From Cetorhinus maximus (lineage: Eukaryota), in contig NC_135917.1 of NCBI RefSeq assembly GCF_964194155.1, forward strand, positions 2,294,001 through 2,358,000: a DNA stretch of 64,000 nucleotides. The letters run 5' to 3'. The notes under the pieces are model-generated. The model ran no database searches, was not told where the DNA came from, and saw nothing but the letters and a program-made list of their open reading frames with translations. The translations under genes and the position numbers were made by a program. Numbering within the stretch: position 1 is the stretch's first letter; the number at the start of each line of letters is the position of its first letter. Below are positions 10,311 through 44,688 of this stretch, piece by piece.

Positions 10311-11494
10311 ATCCACCCTGGGCAGACCTCAGGACCCATGTGGAGATGAAATAAAATAAAGTTCTAAAAATCTAATATTGCTCTCACTATACAGGCTTGA
10401 TAGTAAAAAAAAACTCCAAATCATGAAAGCCCATGCAAAACTTAAAGAAGTGCTAGAACAGATGCTACACCATCTTCCCTGTCAACCAAAGCAATACAGC
10501 AATTTGTTTTAATTCTCATTGACAACTGAAGCCTTTTTTTTAATGTTTAAAGGGCTAGTTGATTTAAATAACTTCAGATCATGATAATTAAACAGACCTT
10601 ATCTGCCCTTCGAGAGCATTTACATTTACTTCATAAATTTGTAGCTTCCACACTGCAGTTTAAGGCCCTTGTCAGCACTGAGTTCATATAGCTCTGCTGA
10701 GTTCGGGTTTCCCTCATGTGCATTACGCCCTGCTCTCTTTCCCCTACTGGCAAAAATTGGATCTGTTGGAAATCGGGGTAGGCCTCCCACATCTGACTCC
10801 ATCCCACCATTTTTGAAAGTCCCCAGAGTCTTCACATCTCTGCAAAAATGCAGCCCATAATGTCTGTTTTAAGCCAAAATGAATGCGATGAATAGAGCAG
10901 ACACGAGGTCTGGTCCACTCAATGCTTAAGCGGTTGCTGCAAGCTAAAAGCGACTACCAATAAATTATTTTATTAAATGTTTCTGTGGAGCCAGGAGGAG
11001 CAGGTGTGATCCCTATGCTCTACAGTTCTTGTGATCATCCCATTCTCCATATTATCACTCCATCTTCCCACTTCCTGGGACTTATAACAGGGCCGCTATC
11101 TGTGAAGCCGCTCAAAAGCTCACCTTAACCAATTTCTATGCCTCACTCTCTAGGCTACTTGTGTGAGACATAAGAAGACTGATGCTTGTGGAGTTATACT
11201 CCTGATAGCCAGTTGGTGAAGGAAGAAACCAGAGTCAGTCTCCTACCTGGAATAGATTTATTCACAGAGCATATATCTCCTGACTCCACACTACTCCTGT
11301 GTCTCCTTATATGTGCCCAAGTAACCATCCAATCAGCGCTCTCCACCTGTATGTACTTAACCTCAATTGACACTGTATGCATCATTGCTTTCAGGAGAGT
11401 CAGAGGGGAAATTGAAGGGGACTAAAGAGGAAAATTAGGTAATGGAACTCAGGTCAGCGGTTCCCAAACTGTGGGTCATGACTCCAATTTGGGT

Positions 11495-12495
11495 TACATA
11501 GAAAATCAGGAGTAGGCCATTCGGCCCTTCGAGCCTGTTCTGCCATTCATTATGATCATGGCTGATCATCCAACTCAATAGCCTGCTCCCACTTTCTCCC
11601 CATACCCTTTGATTCCTTTCCCCCCAAAAGCTACATCTAACTCCTTCTTGAAAACATACAATGTTTTGGCCTCAACTACTTCCTGTGGTAGCGAATTCCA
11701 CAGGCTCACCACTGTCTGGGTGAAGAAATTTCTCCTCATCTCAGTCCTAAATGGTCTACCCCGTATCCTCAGACTGTGACCCCTGGTTCTGGACTCCCCC
11801 ACCATCGGGAACATCCATCCTGCATCTACCCTGTCTAATCCTGTTAGAATTTTATAAGTTTCTATGAGATCCCCCCTCATTCTTCTGAACTCCAGCGAAT
11901 ATAATCCTAACCGACTCAATCTCTCCTCATATGTCAGTCCCACCATCCCAGGAATCAGTCTGGTAAACCTTCGCTGCATTCCCTCTATAGCAAGAACATC
12001 CTTCCTCAGATACTGCACACAATATTCCAAGTGTGGTCTCACCAAGGCCCTGTATAATTGCAGCAAGACATCCCTGCTCCTGTACTCAAATTCTCTGGCT
12101 ATAAAGGCCAACATACCATTTGTTTTCTTTACCACCTGCTGCACCTGCATACTTACCTTCAGCAACTGGTGTACAAGGACACCCAGGTCTCATTGCACAT
12201 TCCCCTCTCTCAATTTATAGCCGTTCAGGTAATAATCTGCCTTCTTGTTTTTGCTACCAAAGTGGATAACCTCACATTTACCCACATTAGACTGCATCTG
12301 CATTTGCATGCATTTGCCCACTCACTCAGCTTGTCCAAATCACACTGAAGCATCTCTGCATCCTCCTCACAGCTCACCCTCCCACCCAGCTTTGTGTCAT
12401 CTGCAAATTTGGAGATATTACATTTAGTTCCCTCATCTAAATAATTAATATATATTGTGAATAGCTGGGGTTCCAGCACCGATCCCTGTGGTACT
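11495..12495 (-). mobile_element. 5'-truncated CR1/HER1 LINE (RT domain and 3' end)
   Basis: ORFs 12225-12479 (LFTIYIN...KFADDTKLGG) and 11575-12165 (LYRALVRPHLEYCVQ...RGDLIETYK...TRGHSL), plus the CR1 tail. Confidence 0.92.
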
Positions 12496-12745
12496 CAAAT
12501 CTGCGGGTTGAGTAACAGTAAAAAGGGTCACAAATATTTCTGGTAATTGTCATGTTAATATGTAAAATAAAAACAAACTTTCTGTTGTTGAAACAGTTGT
12601 CTCCTGCACTGAAATTGGCAGGATTTTTGAAATTGATGAATAATTATAGATCAGCCACTCGTGACCAGTGTTTTATTTCATCCTCAGAGTTTGATCTAAA
12701 TCTGCCTGGTTCCAGCCAATTACTGCTCAGAGTGGTCTCTGACGA

Positions 12746-13110
12746 GCGACCCAAAAGAGTGCTCCAGCCACGGGCAGAGTAAAGAAGGCTCATTGTTACA
12801 GATCAGGCCCGGTTCTTTGAGCATGAACCGCTGCTACCAGGAATCCAGCGACCTGTTCATCCGCAAAATTCCTGTTTAGTGCCTGATGTGAGAGATCACT
12901 CAAGATTTCAAGCTAGACCCTGTGCTTCCAGAGCTCGGCCATCATGGCCCTGCTGGAAGTCAGTGAGGCTTACCTGGTGGGGCTCTTTGAGGACACCGAT
13001 CTGTGCGCTATCCACACGAAGTGAGTCACCACTATGCCCAAAGACATCCATCTGGCCAAGCGCAACAAGAGCTCCTTTAAGACCCACCAAATCAACAAAG
13101 GAAAGAGCTG
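12746..13110 (+). pseudogene. H3: replication-dependent histone H3 (H3.2-like) pseudogene fragment with degenerate stem-loop and HDE
   Basis: Translates with stops and frameshifts to KSAPATGRVKKAHCYRSG...YQESSDLFIRKIP...[56 protein letters not shown] (about H3 residues 27-129). It is followed by agctcctttaagaccc-accaa (13070-13090) and aaagagctg (13102-13110). Confidence 0.9.
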
Positions 13111-14649
13111 CAATTTGCTGTAACCTCAGTAATCTCTGTCTGGTTCCAGTAGTACCCTAGAACTTTAATTGAAGGAGCGCAAGTCTGATATCCAATCTAG
13201 GATTCATAAAACAGCATCTCCGGTACCCAGGTTCACATGCTTTCTTAGGTAATACCTAGTGCTGCTAATTTGTAAATAATTTTTGATTTCGGACACACTT
13301 CATTCACTATTAGCTGGAAGGGGATATGTGTGAGCAGAAAGGGTTAGGAAACAAATGCAGGTTAATAGAATTAATGGGCACGGAGGTTATTGAGAATTGC
13401 TTTGAGAATTGGATTGACGGAATTGGGGTGTGTGGCTTCAGGCTGCATCTGTCGAGGGTGCCTCCTTTGGACTGATACTACGCAGTTGGTTTCCCTGTAG
13501 GCTTTTGGCAGAGGCGGGTTGTTGGGTGGGATTCAGGTGGGATCGGTTGGTTGGGGCACGGAGGACGTAGTTGCATTGCTGAGTTGTTTGGAAGAGATGA
13601 GTTTGCAGCCTGGTCAGTGAGGATCTGGGATTTTCATCACAGATTTGCATTTTTATATAATGTATTCCCAGAATATGTTGATCTATAACACGAAAACTTT
13701 AACAATTATATACTGAATGTTATCATGATGCTTTATTGCTGTTTTATTTTTGTTGGGTGTCTGGGGTCACGTTAATATGCAAGTGTTAAAATGGGGTCAC
13801 GGAGGAAAATAGTTTGGGAAGCACTGACTTAGGCAAAGGACCCTTTAGCTTTCTTTTTCAGCCCAGTTTATTGCCATGTACATCCCCCAAAACATTGCCA
13901 TGTACGTGGCCCCAGACTATTTCATCTATATTCCTTTAGATTATTGCCATGCATAAACCCCAATTTAGTTATCGAGCAGGACAAAGTCAAAGCAAAACTC
14001 TAAAGTATCAACACTGTAGCACTGAAGCTGCTGTACGAATGAACGTAGGAGTTAATTATCATTTTCAATTCCTTTAAAGTATGAGTTAGAGAACAGGATC
14101 TAGGGAGGGGATGAACAGGATAACAAACAACAAAATGGACCTCTTACCTGTCCATTGTCACTAATTTAGGAGTCCCTGGAAACGAAGCTGGGATAGCAGA
14201 GTTCTTCTTGGCAATTGGAAAACTCCCATCTACAATATTTGTGGACCACATGTGGGAGTCGCTAACAAAGGATAAGATTTATTATTAATAGAGTACAAGA
14301 TTTGACATTTAATCAACCAGCGATTGTAAGAACATATATAGCAGCAGGAGTGGGCCATAAGTATCAACCCATTAAGAGTTGCTGCTTCATTGGGGTTCTT
14401 CAATCTCAGAGCCTCTTGAACCAATCTGCACATGGAGATCACTGGAGATATGGTCTCACAAAGTCACACAGGTTAGCTCGACAGTCAAAATGTATGCACA
14501 GTGATCCAGATTGGGGGAAAAAATAGACAGACTGACTAACTGTGGAGAGCAACCGGCCGGGTTTGAATAGTGGAGTTTTGGGAATGTATAGATATTTTCT
14601 GTCTTTGTGGACCACTGAGGCTGAACCAGACTGTTCACAACCTCAATGT

Positions 14650-15776: not shown

Positions 15777-16515
15777 TTACGTGCTACCCTTTCTTGTCAG
15801 CAATTCCTTCTCCTGTTCCAGGCATTTTTCACGATACTTAATAGAAACTTCTGATACTTGAAGTTCATCAAGTTCGAATTGAAAATCTATCTTCATTTTA
15901 TTTGCTTCCACAAGGTTATCATTTAGGCATTTCGAGTCCTCTTTCAAGTGTTCTACTTCCTCTGAGTGACAGTCCACTGTTCTCATCAGTGTTCATTTTT
16001 CACTAGCAAGCTCATCTTTTGTCCATGAATGTTTCATGAACAATTCTTCCTTAACAGAGCCTAATTCCTCCGTGCTATCCTTCAAGCTTGTGTTCTGTAA
16101 TTGCACCTCTGCTAATTGTTTCTGAGATTCTTGATGCTCTTTTGTGAGAACTTCTACTTTCTCTTGCCATTCTAGATTCTTGATTTTCATTTCAGCCATT
16201 TCATTTTTCAACAACTCAATGGTTCTCAGTAAGTTTGAGGCATCCAATGCTTTTCCTTCTAGCTCATTGATCTTCACTGTCGGATTTACATTTTCCGATC
16301 TTATTTCAGTCTTTTCTTTCTCCATCTGCAGCATAGCTTTTCCCTTGACCTTCATTTTGGTATCACTGTTGCCTGGGTTTGCCTCTGGCGAAGTCTTGTT
16401 TCAGTTCTGTAATCGTGCTACGCATAGCTTCAGTATCCGCTTGCAGCTTGGAACGCTCTAACACTTTACCCTCAATCAGAGCCAGATAACTTAGCTCTGC
16501 CACCTGCTGTTGCAT
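15777..16515 (-). pseudogene. disrupted coiled-coil ORF inside the LTR element
   Basis: ORFs 15993-16355 and 15777-15986 are in the same frame, separated by one stop. They are E/K/L-rich with a heptad-like pattern. No gag, RT or integrase motifs. Confidence 0.6.
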
Positions 16516-16720
16516 AAAAGCAAAATACTGCGGATGCTGGAAATCTGAAATGGAAACAGAAAATGCTGGAAAAACTCAGCAGGTCTGGCAGCATCTGTGG
16601 AGAGAGAAACAGAGTTAACATCCAACAGCTCTGAAGAAGAGTCATACAGACTCAAGACGTTAATTCTCTTTCTCTCTCCACAGATGCTCCAGATCTGCTG
16701 AGTTTTTCTAGCATTTTCTG
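16515..16720. mobile_element. Penelope-like terminal palindrome with a degenerate hammerhead core
   Basis: ~62-bp inverted arms (16557-16619 and 16659-16720) surround ctgaagaagagtcatacagactcaagacgtt. Confidence 0.7.
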
Positions 16721-20670: not shown

Positions 20671-21290
20671 CTTTAAAAAGAATATGAATACAATGGTAAT
20701 AGACTTTTATTTTTGATCTTTCCTCCTCAAGACAGTGACTATTGCTGGGTTACATTACATAGTTTCCAGCTACCCTCTGATATCCCACCCAAGTAGTCAC
20801 TTTAATGAGCAGCTGGGGCCAGAAGATGGGTAGATAACAACACATCCCAGCTATACCCGATATAACCTCCTTCCCCATCCACACATGAGAACAGGGCTAG
20901 GACATTTAACCCTTCGACCCAGTTCTGCCATTCTATTAGATCATACTAATAGATGTAATTGAGTAGATCTTCCAGAGTTCCCAACTCAACCTTTTTGCTG
21001 CATTGAAGTACAAGGGAATATCAGAGGGGGAATCATTCCTGAATTGTTTGCTTCCTTGTGACACTTTTCACAAGGGCTTGGATCTTGGAGGATTCCAGCC
21101 AGCTGTGGAGGCTGTGTGGCTTGGGGATATCCGATTGGGCAGAAAGGATGAGGATGACTGAAAAACGAGAGACTATTGCCTCCACAGAACCAACAAGGGT
21201 TATTAGTGGGGTTAAAAATGAAAAGCTAAACTCATGAATTAAACAAAACAGATTGTACTAAATGTACATCATCCTAAAATCAGAACACAC

Positions 21291-21480
21291 CTGATTGAAC
21301 AAGTCAGTCATTCGATTCAAGTGCCTTTGGCGACTCTGATTAACTAGTTGCTGTCTTGCATCCCAGTGCTGCATGCTGGACTTTACACGTGCTTCAAGCC
21401 TGTTGGCAAATCTGTACAGATCCTGAGCAACCGCTTCATTGTTACTGCTAACATCAGACATCCTGCTGTTCAAATAATTT
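21291..21480 (-). CDS. FAM186B: FAM186-like coding exon 5 (conserved C-terminal domain)
   Basis: Acceptor tttctttctcctttaag, donor cag|gtgtgt, phase 2 to 0. AQDLYRFANRLE...QHWDARQQLVNQSRQRHLNRMTDLFNQ resembles the FAM186 AQNLYIFLENID...W..KQ...CL..M..MF segment. Confidence 0.85.
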
Positions 21481-22839
21481 CTTAAAGGAGAAAGAAAGAC
21501 ATAAAGATGAATAAATGAATCTGACCCTGCACTTTAGATGCTCCTTTGCCACCATTTTCTGTGGTATGTTCCCAACCATCACCTTGTGCTACAATTGGGC
21601 TGAATGACAGCACTTTATTTTATCATTCTTCCTTCTCCCTTCCTCCTGGCAAAGTGACTGAGACCAAGCATACACTGGGCAAAGAAATCCAGGGGGAGGT
21701 GCCAACGAAATTATTCTCCAAATCCTTTTTCAGACTTTCTTTTCTTTTCTCTCCTCATCTCCCAAAGACCCAAACTCGGAGTGGGCTTTAGTCCTAGGTG
21801 TCTCCAGCACCAGACTGAAGCCAATCCTGACCTTAGGCAATGTTCATGCACTTAACAATTCCCAGCTAAAATCACTGGACAGCAGTGGAAGCAAGAACAC
21901 TTGCTAATTTTTCTCTTCTCTAGCCAAGCGATGTCAAGGTCCACTGTAGCACGCCAGGACTGGCCCTGGCTGAAATCAGCTAACTGTGCACATATTGGGA
22001 ATAAACCATGGGAGCTTCCTGGTCTGAATGGCTTAATACTACACATGACAGTACTTCAGAACATATGAATATAGAAGTCAAAGAAGAAGCCCATTGAAGC
22101 TCATCTCTTTCATACACTATCTTAACATGAACTCAATTTTGACGTTTGTTCTTTTTGTTCTAATATCTTGCCTGGTACTCACTAAGAGACTGAGCGAGCT
22201 CGTATTTTTTTTCAGCAGAATATGGTATGAGTGCTATAGACAGCCAAGATCACCATGAGCCTGTCACACAGAGCTAGCAAAGTAATTTAATAGAGTTTAC
22301 ATTAGATCTCTGCTACAGGAATGAAGCTTATTGCTTAAATCTATTACCACTACTCCAGTGGGTAAATACAATATGGTTCTGAGCCATGCAAACTAGTAAA
22401 GTCCCATGTTTGATCCCTAATCAGTGCTCAGTGAGTTGATGTCACGTAGGGCAATAGTAGGGTGCTGCATCAAGTAGCATCAGCATCCTTGGGCTCAGGA
22501 GGGAAAAAATAAACAGCCTGGAACCTTGCCCCTGATTAATATCCAATGATAGGTAGATGTTGGGTAAAAACAGAATTTGGTTTGGCCATAATTCATAGTC
22601 AAATAGCCTGCTAACAGTCAAGACTAGATGTCAACTTAATGTCAGCAGTAATCTATTTACTACTGTTACGTCCATTGGAAGATCTAAGTATCACTGTTTA
22701 AGCTCACTTGAAGAACAGGAATAGATGAAGATCTGGACATTTGCTGGAGCCACATACGAGAGTAAGTCACTTTCTTCAAGAGGGAGAAAATTGAGGGAGA
22801 AAATCTGTAATATTCCCATTTCTAAGACAGAAGTTCTCA

Positions 22840-23230: not shown

Positions 23231-23409
23231 TCTCATGGGAAAGTTGTCAATTTCTGACTGATTTCAAACATCCAAAATCAGCATTTGTACTGATATGCAT
23301 TATGAGTTTATGCTCATTTAACCCAACAAGAACTTTTAGTGAAAGGTACAATAGTCTGGTCAAATTGATATCAGCTACTTTTTAAAATTAATGACAGGTA
23401 TGCATCTAC

Positions 23410-25336
23410 CTAACGGTTTGGATATGACGGAAGGTGATGTACTTTCTGAACAGGTAAGCCAGTCGAAGCTGAACTGTAGTTAATGTTTGATGAATAAGGT
23501 GTGTTGCTATGGCATGGAGTTGTCTGGAAATTATACCATTATACACTGCTTGGTCCAAAGTTTTATAATTTTTTCTTAGGTATGTCACATTTACGATATA
23601 TGACCCATCCACAATGTTTTCGGTATCAGCAGCCTGGAAGACCTTTCCCCTGGATTGTGTTGTTCTTTCTATTATCTCTGTTGCCATATTGGGCAGAAGA
23701 ACTCCTTCCTTCTTACCATGTTCTGCCTGTAGTTTAATTTCCTTTCCTTTAAGCCCAAGGACGCTGTTGATAGAGTATAGATTCTTGGTTGTCTCTCGAA
23801 TCCTGATTAACTGATCCATTCCAGCCTGAGAGGACATTTTCTCAAGCGTCAGAACTGTGTCCAAGGCTTCCAGGGTCTTTTCATAGAAGTGGGCTTCTTG
23901 CTGGGACATATTTTTGTTCTGTTTGGCCTCTTCAATGAAATACTGAATTTGGGCACTTAATTCATCAAGTGCAATCTCTTGAATAATACTGAATCTGGAA
24001 ATTTCTTCCAGAAGTTCAGCAAAAGTCGTAAATTCAGGTTGTTTATCCTTCGATTTCTCCACTAGGCTTTCCTTTGATGGCTTTAATACTTGGATTTGTT
24101 GCTCACTGACCTCTTGCTTGAAGTTCTGCCTTGGCTTGGAAAATATTTCTTTGATTGTTTTCTCAATCACTCCATAAACGTTTTTTAATTCAGCAGACTT
24201 GAGAAGAGCTTGGACTTTACAGACATCATCAGGTGAAAGTTCTTTGCCACTGCTCAATCCATGATCCAGCGAATACAAAACAGCAGTTTGAAAATCTGTG
24301 AGCAAGTCTACAACTACCTGCTTAGCCTTGGTTTTTAAAGCTTCTTCTTTCCGAGCTGATGCCCTCTGTTTCTTTCTTCCATTAGGATTAGATTTATGCA
24401 TCTTACCATTCACTGCTTCATTAAGAACCTTCTCCAATTTGGGCTGAGTTGTGGGAGAAATCCTTTCATTGGACACTTCTGTGGGAATATTTTCCCCTTC
24501 AGGTTCTCCAAAGGGTATGTTTTCTTCCTTGGATACTTCTAGGATAGCCCATTGTTTCTGAGGTTCTCCAAAGGAAATATTTTCTTCTGTGGATTTTACA
24601 GGGACAGTCCTTTGACCATCAAGTCTATCATGTCCATCAACAAGAATATTTTTGTGCTCCTGACTGAAGGGATAATTCCCCCTTAGACTTTCTACAGGAG
24701 TGATTTTGTCGTTTGATTTTTTCAAAAGTGTGGTTCTTTTATTTATTTTGGGCACCTGCTTTGTTTTTATTTGCAAATCTTCAGATGGAGAGAAATTTTC
24801 AGAAGTGATTTGCTCATGAGAGGGTGTTTTCTTAGCGTTTTGTAGCTGTGCAACTTTGGACCTCAAGAGTTTAATGGTGTTTTCCAGATTATAGTTAGTG
24901 CTACATGCTTCCTTGTAATGATGTTCCGCTAATTCAGCTCGTGTTTTAAGTGCACTACTGTGTTCTTGAAGATGTTTTAGCTCATTCACCAAGTTATCTT
25001 CAAAACCCTGGGAGCCAAATGAGTCTGACTTTCTCAATTCATTTTCTACCTCAAAATATTCCTGTGACCGACTGTGAAATGCTTTGTGAAGATTCTCTAT
25101 GAATTTCCTTATGTATCTGAAGGCAATTGTCTGGGCTTTCTTGCAAGGAAGAGATTTTGTGATGTCTGTTAGTATCATATCAATCTCTCCCACTACTGCG
25201 TCCAACTGTTTTGCAATGTTCGGTTCCATCATTTTCGCTGTACTCATTGGCTGCATATCCAGAAGATGCATGAGTGTTTTGGGATCCATCTTTTTCTCCC
25301 TCCACCATTTCAAAATGGTACCTTTACCACCAGGAC
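23410..25336 (-). CDS. FAM186B: FAM186-like coding exon 4 (1927 nt)
   Basis: Acceptor attctttgcag, donor tag|gtagat, phase 1 to 2. Open 641 codons: KGTILKWWREKK...AFRYIRKFIENLHKAF, a coiled coil, and ...RLAYLFRKYITFRHIQTVR. This matches recalled FAM186 N- and C-terminal motifs. Confidence 0.9.
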
Positions 25337-25539
25337 CTGCAAAGAATCACAGGGTAAGACCAATTATTGCACACTTTATTATGTTTTATGCTTCAAAACT
25401 TTTTGACAGTGTTTAAGGTATATCAATACCAATATCAATATAAGTCTTTCTCTTTCTTTCCATCAGAATTGGATATTGTGCAATTTCATGTGTACTCTGA
25501 ATGATTTTAACATTGTGCAATGCAACTTACTAAATATCA

Positions 25540-27610: not shown

Positions 27611-28266
27611 CTTTAGAGAGAGAACTGGCTTCATTGTCATGGTCATACATGTCATGGTTCCTGAGACTCATCTTCACATTTTTCATCCTATACTGTCTTA
27701 AAAGTCATTTGTTCCTGTCTAGTGTCAGTTTGATATTTAGCTTGCTGTAAACAGTCTTCAGTGGGGTAGCATTAAGGCAAATGGTCTTCAACTGAATGAA
27801 GGTACCCTGCAGAAGATGCTTCCTGGCCCAGTTTTCATTTTGTTTCCTGGTGAGTTGAGGTTTTCTCATGTCCATGTACACATCTGTGGCCACTTCCTGC
27901 ATTGACTACAACCTCTACGCAATGAGTCCTTAAAGTTACATTCTTAAATTTTGGGGTTCTGATGTACAGAAGTTTGGAGATTGAAATGCTTTGCTGAGAT
28001 GGAAAGTGACAACCTTTTAAAATGCTCAGCACAACTTGAAACATGAATTTTTGTATACATTTGGAAAAAACAACTTCTAAGCTCATAATTTGCTGTCCCA
28101 TATAATCTTTCTCTTCCCTCCATTTTACAGTTATGCTGAAATCAACACCCACGACATCGTCTCCAACTCATAACTCATTATTTTCCTGGATCTGAAAATT
28201 GTGGCTGTCTTCTGTCAATTTGGACACTTGGACACATGGCAAAATCTAATACTTTTCTAAATTTAC

Positions 28267-28461
28267 CTGCTGGTTTTTGCTTTGCATGCTCATGTTGAAG
28301 ACTAAACAGAGTGTTAGATAGTTTATGCAGATTGTCTATGCATTCTTGTGAAGAAGCCAAGCTTGATTGCACTTTCACGTTAACTTCCTCAATCCATTCA
28401 GCTGACCTTTTTTCAACTTCTCCATCCTCCTCGAAGTCTTCTTCATCAATTAGTATTTGAT
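28267..28461 (-). CDS. FAM186B: FAM186-like coding exon 3
   Basis: Acceptor atattttgcag, donor cag|gtaaat, phase 1 to 1. EWIEEVNVKVQSSLASSQECIDNL resembles FAM186B EWIEVTEKVLPLSLIATKRGIESL as recalled. Confidence 0.88.
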
Positions 28462-28687
28462 CTGCAAAATATATGGATAAGATAAAATTATATTTGTAAA
28501 TTAGATTGAAACAGCACATCTGGCCATACATAAAGCTGCTCCTGTTTTAAGAGCACTTATTATTCTTATTTGCATTTTTTTTTTTGGCTTCATCAAGGTG
28601 AAGAATTTAGTGTTAGTAAGTGAAACACTTTCCATCTTGAGCACAGAGCATTATCAGCTTTGAACACTCTCAAGTTAGGCATAACAT

Positions 28688-40979: not shown

Positions 40980-42457
40980 CAAAGCCTCTGGTTTGTCTGT
41001 CACCTGGAGTACACTGTATTCATACAGGAAATGAAATGTACAGATTTCTTTTTACCACTTTAGGCAGATGAGAAAAGACACTTGCTGTGCTCTTCCCTCA
41101 ATCACATGGTTTATTTTGCATGCAAGGCATTAACTGGCTGTTCAGCCTGCTGATTGTCATGAATGGTTGCATCCATTTGCTAAAGTCCACAGATTGTGTT
41201 GCAAGATGTATAAGCTTCAATAAGCACAAGCAAGTAACTGTTTAAATTCATGTGCTGTGCCAGGAATTCTTCTTTCTGTTCCCTACCCCCACACAAGCTT
41301 TTGGCCATTTAAATAACTTCAAATTCTATTAATATACAAAAGAAAACCATTCCTTATCCACTGCAACAAGTCAACATTTCACATAAACGGCATGAGGAAC
41401 AACAGTCTAGGAAGCATTTGAAAATTATCCATGACCCTTGACCTACTAAATTAAGAAGATTACTGAATAAAGACAATGTGCGCCAATATAAACCGCCTGC
41501 TTGTACAGACTCTTTGAATGAAGTACCAGATTAAGGGGTCAGAACTTTCTAATGTGTTGGGTGTTGTACTCTAGTCCCTCAAAGCTATCTCATTTTCTTT
41601 CCAGCATTGTTTGTTAAAATGACCGGGCTCTTTTAAGTTCCAAATTCGGCCGCTGCAGTAGATGATGACTGGCAGGGCTCATTGTCACACTAACTGGCTC
41701 CATGGTCAAGGGATGTTGCATGACAACTTAATAAGTTAGCAATTGGGTCAGAGTTTGGAGCACCTGAAAAAACAGATGGTACAAATCTGTGTGTACTTTT
41801 TTGCTCCAAAAACAAAACTGGGGAGATACCAAAGAATACAGTTGTAGCCACACCACCACCACCTCCTCCACCGCCCACCCCCCCCAAATAATGCAGACTT
41901 GGACACTAATATTGCATCTTCCCCCCACCACTGCCTCCCCATCTGCCCTAACATCTTTGATTTAAACACTTGAAAATTGCACATCCCCACCTCCTGTTGC
42001 TCCATCAAGCCTGCCTGCCCCACACTAATGACGGCCAGAGCACCACGATTAAACATTTCCTTTCCACCACTCAACTGCACAGCCAGCATGTAATCTTCTG
42101 AGACAGACAAGAAGAACCCAGGCCAATAATGGAAAGAAAATACACTGGAAAATTTCTTACCAACCCATTTAGGTGACTGAAAGCAGTCCAGGAGATCACA
42201 TGGCCCACATTGGTTCTCATCAATAAGGACAAACCAGCCCAATGCTATTTATGTAAAGAGATTTACTACATAATTGGATCAAGCATTTGAAGCTCAAGTT
42301 TTGCCACCTTGAATAATGGACCATCTTAAGGTCTTTATGCATCCTTAATCAGTTAACTTAGTCAGAATTAACCAAAAAAGGAACTGGTCTTATGGCTTTC
42401 TACTGCTCCTATTTCTTATGTTCGTATGCCTATTCTGGGCTAGCTCCACATGGGGCC

Positions 42458-44688
42458 CAAGCATGTCAGAATCCATGAGGAAAGGTATCATCACCCTCAT
42501 CTACAAGCACAAGGGGGAAAGGGAGGAAATTAGAAATTGGCGACCCATTTCACTGTTGAATGTAGACTATAAGATTCTGTCCAAGGTCATCGCCAATCGG
42601 GTCAAGTCCACTCTGGAATTGGTGATCCACCCTGACCAGACCTGCGCTGTGCCCGGCAAGAAGATCTCTGGCAGCCTTGTGCTACTCAGGGATACGATTG
42701 CCTATGTGCAGGACAGGGGCGTGGACACCTGCCTCATCAGCCTGGATCAGGAGAAGGCCTTTGACAGAATATCGCACACCTACATGGTGGATGTGCTCTC
42801 CAAAATGGAGTTTGGGGAGGGAATTTGCAACTGGATCCAACTGCTCTACACTAACAGCAGTAGCGCAGTCTCAATCAATGGTTGGGAATCAGATAGCTTT
42901 CCGATTAAATCTGGAGTCAGGCAGGGCTGCCCCCTCTCCCCTGTCCTGTTTGTGTGTTGCATAGAACCCTTTGCTGAGTCCATCAGGAAGGATCCGGGCA
43001 TAAGAGGAGTGACGATCCCAGGCAGTGGAGGTACTCAGGTCAAAGCCTCCCTGTACATGGATGATGTCGCCGTCTTCTGCTTGGATCCACTGTCGGTGCG
43101 CAGACTGATCCACATCTACGACCAGTTCCAACTGGCCTCGGTAGCCAAGGTATATCATGGGAAGAGCGAGGCCATGTTCTTTGGGAACTGGGCTGACCAA
43201 TCCTTTGTCCCCTTCACCGTCAGGGCTGACGGCCTGAAGGTGCTGGGGATATGGTTCGGAGGGACCGGGGCATGCGTTAGAAACTGGAAGGAGCGAGTGT
43301 CTATGATGCAAAGAAAACTGGGCATGTGGGAGCGACGCTCCCTCTCCATTGCGGGTAAGAACCTGGTCATCAGGTGTGAGGCACTCTCGCTGTTGCTGCA
43401 TTCCAGACTTCTGCGCGATGGCGATCACCCGAGCCACTTTTCGCTTTAGCTGGAGATCAAAAATAGATCATGTCCGCAGGGACGCGATGTACAAGCCTCT
43501 AGATAAAGGGAGAAAAAATGTGCCCAACATCACCCTCATACTGATGGCCACCTTTGTGTGTGGCTGCATCAAGCTGTGTGTAGACCCTCAGTACGCAAAC
43601 ACCAAGTGTCACTACGTGCTGAGGTTCTACCTGTCCCCGGTGTTGTGAAGGATGGGTCTGGCCACGCTGCCGCGGAACGCTCCAAGTAGTTGAACCGTGC
43701 CGTACCACCTGTCCCTCGTGGAAAAATTTATGCAGAGAAACACCTTTGACCACAAGTCCATCAGGCAGTGGTTGGCACATAATGTCTTAGAGGCCCTGCG
43801 GGAAAAGGAGAGGGTGGACCCTGTGGGATGGTTCCCCCAGCAGACCGTCAAAGTCATTTGGCAGAATGCCTCATCGCCAGAACTTTCCAACAAGCACCAA
43901 GATGTAGCTTGGCTGGTGGTGAGAAAGGCCCTCCCTGTCAGATCCTTCCAACACGCCAGGAGTCTCACCCCCCCCTCTGCACGTTACCCTCAAGGTGGCT
44001 GTGGTGGGGACGAGACCGTTGTTCACCTCCTTGTGGATTGTGCCTTAGCAAAGAAGGTCTGGAGAGAGATGCAGTGGTTTCTGTCGAAGTTCATCCTGAG
44101 CAATTCTCTGCTCTACAGGCTGTTCCCAGGGGGACACACCGAGACAAACATCAACTGCAGCTGGAGGATCATCAACTCAGTGAAAGACGCTCTTTGGTCT
44201 GCCCGTAACTTGTTGATCTTCCAGTGCAAAGAGTTGTGCCCGACCGAGTGTTGCAGACTGGCACATTCCAAGGTCCAGGACTATGTGCTGAGGGGCGCAC
44301 TAAAGCTTGGGGCAGCCGCTGCAAAGGCGCAATGGGGAAAGGACGCTTTCTGCCATAGTGCACCGAGGGGCTGGGAATTGTTTACAGCCCCTCGGGCTGT
44401 ACAGCTCACAATGAAGGTATGCATGGAATGCTAATTGTATTATAATTGTATTGAAGCACCTCAGAGTGCAACATGACGTATGTTGATAACTCCAATCCCA
44501 TTACACTGTCTGACTGTCTGTAATGACCATATTGAAATGATTGTAATATTCATTGATTGTATTGAAGCACCTTGTGATCCATGTGTAAAAGTTGAATCTG
44601 ATTGCACTTTTTGTGATGGTGATTTACAAATGTTTTGTAATATTCTTCCAGATATTTTATGAATAAAGTATATTTTTCAAAAAAAAAA
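42458..44688 (+). mobile_element. Tx1/L1-clade LINE, 5'-truncated ORF2 (RT and zinc knuckle) with 3'UTR and poly(A)
   Basis: NWRPISLLNVDYKILSK, DQEKAFD, GVRQGCPLSP, YMDD, ETVVHLLVDC. AATAAA followed by an A10 tail. Frameshifts present. Confidence 0.93.

Follow-up and report, generated by a model that had tools for sequence, protein, structure and literature searches.

A non-autonomous hAT-type element carrying histone H3 gene-region DNA in Cetorhinus maximus

Pack-TIRs are transposable elements (TEs) whose terminal inverted repeats (TIRs) enclose host-derived DNA. Multicopy Pack-TIRs are a known class and are rare in vertebrates. In the 100-genome animal survey of Tan et al. (2021), they make up four cases (1.4%), from frog and alligator, two examples given there having three and five copies; the elephant shark has 0 Pack-TIRs, and a term search of the survey's supplement returned no histone cargo (PMC8277862). 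Capture of histone H3 by hAT elements is already published for Dothideomycete fungi, namely for H3L of Pyrenophora (PMC3538342) and for Pseudocercospora (PMC6710886). A term search of a recent review of histone gene organisation (PMC13525598) returned no passage on transposon-borne histone genes. Open-access literature listings, with Repbase and Dfam outside, gave no published case of a vertebrate DNA transposon that carries histone sequence, though one may already have been annotated. Here we describe an element at positions 11455-13826 of a 64,000-nucleotide stretch of the Cetorhinus maximus genome (the window; NC_135917.1, positions 2,294,001 to 2,358,000). It very probably represents a single copy of a hAT-type element, non-autonomous and of low copy number, whose approximately 0.9 kb of H3-region DNA was captured once as DNA and amplified in an old burst.

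The family works like a multicopy Pack-TIR on a Buster-type hAT element and agrees with that class in the features tested. Like Pack-hAT-N8_XT of Xenopus, it has non-autonomous hAT ends around host DNA, lies on several chromosomes with distinct target-site duplications (TSDs), is found far from its parent locus and may show short microhomology (PMC8277862). Unlike the animal multicopy Pack-TIRs, it has at least 11 copies, is old and contains DNA from the promoter, the coding part and the 3'-processing region of a histone gene. With the fungal elements it has in common the hAT superfamily vehicle, the H3 cargo and the dispersed, amplified copies, dead ones being described in Pseudocercospora. 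In contrast, the fungal elements include autonomous forms with transposase and reach 26 to 784 copies, whereas the element described here is without transposase; the Pseudocercospora cargo looks transcript-derived (PMC6710886), whereas the capture here is genomic; and the Pyrenophora copies are intact and transcribed (PMC3538342), whereas here TATA and ATG seem to have been lost before amplification. Mar of Drosophila, a Buster-family hAT miniature inverted-repeat TE, resembles the family in being non-coding, with short TIRs starting with CAG and an 8-bp TSD with central TA (PMC3517528).

Layout of the element and its histone cargo

The features of the element are as follows, from left to right, in window positions.

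11447..11454 (+): left TSD ACTCAGGT, matching the right copy at 6/8 positions
11455..11470 (+): left TIR, 16 bp, 14/16 complementary to the right TIR
11471..11495 (+): first part of the hAT left subterminal sequence, common to H3-less family members
11496..12494 (-): nested 5'-truncated long interspersed nuclear element (LINE), presumably of CR1 type, younger than its host element, with reverse transcriptase (RT)-like frames; 90.5% identity to another copy
12495..12531 (+): approximately 18 bp of unassigned filler bordering the 5' end of the LINE, followed by the remaining hAT left end, from alignment
12532..12745 (+): captured H3 upstream/promoter DNA, bounded on the right by the shared 148-bp deletion; TIR-less histone units are collinear with it, as are, more weakly, the intact H3 genes on C32
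12653-12660 (+): distal CCAAT box, decayed, within the captured promoter DNA
12714-12722 (+): proximal CCAAT box, within the captured promoter DNA
12746..13056 (+): coding piece of canonical H3 (codons 24-127), disrupted by frameshifts and stops; 82-83% identity to intact H3 genes on contig C32
13070..13085 (+): degenerate histone 3' stem-loop; 3/6 pairs remain, predicted unfolded
13101..13110 (+): histone downstream element (HDE) GAAAGAGCTG; identical decamer in the intact C32 genes
13111..13392 (+): captured downstream spacer (H3-H2A intergenic DNA); its match to TIR-less H3+H2A units reaches about profile position 990
13393..13628 (+): G-rich internal arm of the hAT vehicle, common to H3-less relatives, e.g. 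at C23:22.38 Mb
13629..13810 (+): hAT right subterminal sequence, high-copy; approximately 80-85% identity in the best 40 of 1193 candidates
13811..13826 (+): right TIR, 16 bp, pairing with the left TIR
13827..13834 (+): right TSD ACTTAGGC, matching the left copy at 6/8 positions

The cargo extends from 12532 to about 13392 and consists, in this order, of approximately 215 bp of upstream sequence that includes two CCAAT boxes, the 148-bp deletion, the remaining coding sequence (CDS), the 3' untranslated region (UTR), stem-loop, HDE and approximately 280 bp of spacer. The deletion takes out the TATA element, the 5' UTR, the ATG and codons 1-23. The coding piece has A31 and S96 and, at R116, a stop by change of CGA to TGA; only the window copy has lost 44 bp from the 3' end of the CDS. 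The sequence ACCAA stands between the broken stem-loop and the HDE. For the stem-loop of the intact gene, folding is predicted at -9.4 kcal/mol. An Rfam scan of the window gave 0 matches at gathering thresholds, which fits with the decayed stem-loop. A functional replication-dependent H3 gene is not found in any copy: TATA and ATG are gone in 11/11 copies, and stops or indels occur. Nor does the H3 piece look like a processed pseudogene, as promoter and post-HDE DNA are present, neither junction shows poly(A) or an own TSD, and the cargo stands in place of vehicle sequence instead of interrupting it.

The HDE is the U7 site and lies past the U7-dependent cleavage site; it is absent from mature histone mRNA. 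Likewise, the DNA upstream of TATA and past the HDE is not part of this mRNA. Because the cargo includes the promoter and also reaches past the cleavage site, we conclude that it was captured at the DNA level.

The LINE, by name CR1 as we assume, is a 3' end on the minus strand that splits the left subterminal region and holds reading frames of the RT C-terminal part; a Pfam scan of one of its frames (204 aa) gave no match. It is not present in any other copy of the H3-bearing element and, being 90.5% identical to another fetched copy, is read as a later insertion.

An earlier note on this stretch had named the 16-bp TIRs with a 6/8 TSD, a nested CR1 at 11495-12495, an H3 fragment with A31, S96 and the CGA-to-TGA change, and a degenerate stem-loop followed by ACCAA and the HDE. 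All of these are recovered, with the correction that the stem-loop does not fold. Its outline of the cargo, an H3 piece with 3' signals, was too small in extent; promoter and downstream spacer belong to it too. Its proposal of DNA-level transduplication rather than retroposition agrees with the promoter and post-HDE DNA, collinear with TIR-less units. Just right of the element, at 13865-13963, we observed three degenerate 26-bp direct repeats (ATTGCCATG core).

H3-bearing copies, parent DNA and vehicle family

The species' own 4.0-Gb assembly was searched with the cargo, its promoter part, its downstream part and then other copies; C-numbers denote contigs of that assembly, the window being C40:2294001-2358000. 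The best 40 candidates were scored per search, so copy number is a lower bound. We found at least 11 dispersed H3-bearing copies, here called A type, on 9 contigs: C40 (window), C15:91.59, C7:58.96, C9:95.20, C19:43.68, C3:128.97, C27:35.29, C28:16.29, C8:55.71, C8:95.71 and C5:135.31 Mb. Two extra searches with other copies as query gave no new H3-bearing A-type copy among the candidates scored. Three more fragments, at C1:94.60, C3:135.51 and C13:75.56 Mb, are without the H3 part. The missing ends of truncated copies and fragments (C3 twice, C19, C27, C28, C8 twice, C1, C13) were not seen in 10 kb further out.

The copies have one pair of capture junctions, and the junction of the internal 148-bp deletion is common to 11/11. 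Left TIRs are present in 10/11, right TIRs in 6/11 and both in 5/11. In these 5 complete copies the 16-bp TIRs are 12-14/16 complementary, and the TSDs are distinct, as expected of a multicopy Pack-TIR; they agree within each site and differ from site to site. Own-pair TSD matches of the A type are 6, 6, 6, 5 and 5 of 8, and a B type described below has 6 of 8 (mean over these six insertions 5.67), versus a cross-pair mean of 3.35 over 544 pairs (P ~2e-5). This null comprised 6 H3-bearing insertions and 11 of 14 H3-less members with a left TIR; L050, L053 and L059, whose flank calls looked wrong, were dropped. The copies on C15 and C7 are similar to the window only as far as the TIRs.

C32 has a large cluster of intact canonical H3 genes, with a full frame in 27/27 fetched. 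The CDS of the family consensus is 4.3-5.4% from these genes; once CpG decay is reversed, it is 4 bases away and encodes an identical protein. The C32 flanks have diverged from the cargo, by 34-37% upstream and with no match in the spacer. The whole length of the cargo is matched by degenerate TIR-less H3+H2A units at at least 29 places on C11, C16, C20, C36, C81 and C179, their upstream part being 17-23% from the family consensus. A convergent H2A is found in 19/20 units. Seven units, read with at least approximately 4 kb of flanking DNA, align with profile positions 65 to ~990, and hAT ends occur in 0/7. This is the arrangement of a Pack-TIR: TE ends around host-derived DNA, with TE-free parent-type units that match the cargo only. 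The units cluster near contig starts and on C36 (C11:0.69-0.97, C16:4.27-5.11, C20:0.25-1.47 and C36:4.9-11.3 Mb, C81 and C179; e.g. L094, L129, L291), and none of those translated has an intact H3 frame. They make up a second, dead lineage of histone clusters, separate from the intact one on C32, and preserve the parent configuration of the cargo.

The right end of the vehicle is abundant by itself (1193 candidates, best 40 scored). Among 25 right-end-only loci, H3, promoter or spacer was found in 0/25 within the fetched flank, and 14 have the left TIR with other interiors. Since 0/25 of these other loci carry H3, the H3 cargo belongs to one small subfamily within a large non-autonomous hAT family. 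The G-rich arm at 13393-13628 is common to the H3-less relatives and hence belongs to the vehicle. We further observed that H3-less members (L037, L038, L039, L042, L044, L045, L047, L048, L051, L053, L056, L059, L060, L125) have several different interiors of 0.5-1.5 kb, some with exon-like or splice-donor-like stretches, which may be further captured cargoes.

The Buster group is characterised by short TIRs of 5-27 bp and a TSD with central TA, nnnTAnnn (PMC3517528). The family has 16-bp TIRs and an 8-bp TSD, exact at 8/8 in two H3-less members, and its TSD consensus is nnnTAnnn, positions 4 and 5 being T and A in 58/68 symmetrised counts over 17 sites. Charlie/MER-type elements are presumably alike in their short CAG-starting TIRs, central-TA 8-bp TSD and non-coding state, and Charlie, as a family name for our element, is an assumption of ours. 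Unlike for Mar and the Charlie/MER-type elements, no partner transposase was identified for the family: among at least 40 matches listed to PF05699 (hAT dimerisation), 0/30 fetched loci have family ends within 1.5 kb, and no transposase relic was seen among the output listed. As a separate observation, four intact frames of 670-700 codons with a hAT dimerisation domain (L192-L195; C6:72.99, C7:13.79, C33:18.59 and C30:18.03 Mb), with no family ends nearby, are likely domesticated hAT transposases.

The family is old and spread long ago. Copies are 13.8-18.6% from the consensus and on average 26% from one another. The cargo tree, which left out the short C1 fragment, is near star-like, with support only for the pairs window + C15 (95) and C7 + C5 (82); the A type, with a lone copy at C7:84.21 Mb, is split from the B type, the units and the intact genes with support 97. 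Decay of the codons is neutral, with changes at 246/1779 (13.8%) of 0-fold sites versus 80/529 (15.1%) of 4-fold sites (Fisher P 0.48). CpG sites (216/500 changed) have decayed approximately three times faster than others (414/2856). A selection signal of pN/pS 0.72 against a present-day H3 gene was rejected, the value being 0.91 (P 0.48) against the reconstructed parent state. Of the stem-loop cells, 28/144 are off consensus; among the 9 copies retaining it, one (C15), whose HDE is intact too, still has the stem-loop sequence of the intact gene. A search of sequencing runs listed no RNA run with words of the element; 16-21% of its words occur in runs of two other organisms, which evidences neither expression nor orthology. 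The family is likely dead, with no copy working today.

The mobile TIR-H3-TIR family with different TSDs proposed in the earlier note is seen in the own genome, in 5 complete copies. Within the H3-bearing subfamily, the two findings named there as fatal are absent: H3 does not have its own TSD beside hAT copies without H3, and the TIRs do not stem from separate insertions. "Many copies" and an ongoing dispersal of usable H3 or U7 signals found no support, there being about 11 old, neutrally decaying copies, none with TATA or ATG. As a source of scattered H3-like loci, the family accounts for a minority; most loci seen are the TIR-less H3+H2A units.

Mechanism, variant copies and alternatives

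In the mechanism that we propose, an H3-less non-autonomous element would have swapped its interior for histone-cluster DNA by template switching in repair or replication (gap filling or FoSTeST). Capture would have been followed by the 148-bp deletion and then by amplification, the deleted form having been moved in trans, likely by a Buster-type transposase; the CR1-type LINE entered the window copy later. By eye, microhomology of approximately 2 bp can be read from the decayed sequence: AA at the left junction, GA at the right one and AG at the deletion.

Several points weigh against this account. The junction microhomologies are short and decayed and may reflect chance. An autonomous partner was not found among the PF05699 loci fetched, so that the hAT/Buster assignment is drawn from the form of TIRs and TSDs only. 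One end is missing in 6/11 copies, the full layout being present in 5 only, and in one of these (C9:95197380-95201490, L114; TSD 5/8) the left arm and left flank are inverted against the remainder of the copy, with a 2.6-kb insertion splitting them. Finally, the HDE (2/90 differences) and the proximal CCAAT box (2/100) are better kept than neutral decay predicts.

Two variants bear on the history of the family. The B type (C36:10716885-10717863, L128) has the hAT ends of the family, A-like upstream DNA and a different internal deletion, by which 5' UTR and N-terminal codons are kept and TATA and most of the spacer are lost. Its CDS and 3' UTR have unit-type states (8 vs 3 and 11 vs 3 diagnostic sites), which could be explained by gene conversion or a second capture. 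It represents one insertion duplicated with its flanks (C36:10.72 Mb, C36:10.748 Mb, C1830, C1360, C4905). The lone copy at C7:84213100-84213690 (L127:5601-6183, minus strand) has promoter, a TATA-like element, ATG and codons to approximately 93. It has A-like states (5 vs 0, 6 vs 2) and starts near the capture boundary; no TIR was found within approximately 10 kb. This copy could be a remnant of a full-length founder or, alternatively, an old and unrelated duplicate. Such a founder would have had a complete, expressible H3 gene with promoter and U7 signals of its own, and only TATA-less derivatives of it would have spread, which would imply selection against mobile histone expression and make the C7:84.21 Mb copy its relic. 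This scenario, which draws on the removal of TATA by both the A-type and the B-type deletion, seems to us rather unlikely.

Some copies might have been kept as regulatory modules, made up of CCAAT box and U7-pairing HDE, with the coding piece dead. Approximately 12 of the 90 HDE cells would be expected to be off consensus where 2 are, the proximal CCAAT decamer is similarly intact, and both are among the three best-kept places in 832 overlapping windows. However, these counts are overdispersed (variance of z 1.6-2.1), a rough correction giving P ~0.01 for the HDE, and an unannotated decamer is equally well kept. Moreover, cleavage requires the stem-loop as well as the HDE, and the stem-loop has decayed (28/144); seed-based searches favour copies with intact words, and the motif in the window is antisense to the nearest gene. 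Given the overdispersed counts and a possible search bias, we take the conservation as a lead only and consider such modules improbable.

It is very improbable that the H3 piece is a retrocopy, of an mRNA or a read-through transcript, which landed in the hAT element and was carried along. The hAT-borne H3 of Pseudocercospora is without introns, suggesting transcript capture (PMC6710886). Here the intron test is inapplicable, canonical H3 genes being intronless, and a long read-through RNA could span the downstream spacer. But the start of the cargo some 215 bp upstream of the TATA box, with CCAAT boxes, largely refutes a retrocopy, and junctions without poly(A) or separate TSD, at which vehicle sequence is replaced, speak against it. 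Next to no weight can be given to TIRs from separate insertions, for all the abundance of the right end, or to segmental duplication. Both are refuted for the 5 complete A-type copies, where ends plus cargo recur at unrelated sites with site-specific TSDs (P ~2e-5) and similarity of the window to C15 and C7 stops at the TIRs; duplication holds for the B-type duplicates on C36, C1830, C1360 and C4905 only.

Neighbouring features and significance

FAM186A/B-like exons lie on the minus strand of the window at 21276-21503, 23406-25346 and 28178-28546, both Pfam domains being matched in the 646-codon exon. As far as detected, they end at 21276; the H3 piece lies antisense to the last detected exon and approximately 7.5 kb 3' of it. 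At 15780-16575, minus strand, there is a broken coiled-coil reading frame (frameshift and stop) with no clean exon, possibly a piece of a decayed retroelement or pseudogene. Fairly intact, long RT-like frames of a different LINE clade, which we take to be Tx1/L1-like, are present at 42349-44434 (+).

The family has no evident present function and is probably functionless. If the founder scenario were true, it would, with the fungal cases, add one more independent capture of H3 by a hAT element and point to a recurring affinity of hAT elements for histone loci. With at least 11 copies, resolvable junctions and a traceable parent, the family is a clean vertebrate example of gene capture by a DNA transposon. 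It shows a route by which histone pseudogenes are scattered besides retroposition and cluster breakage, and it keeps ancestral histone-cluster promoter and spacer DNA since lost by the intact genes.

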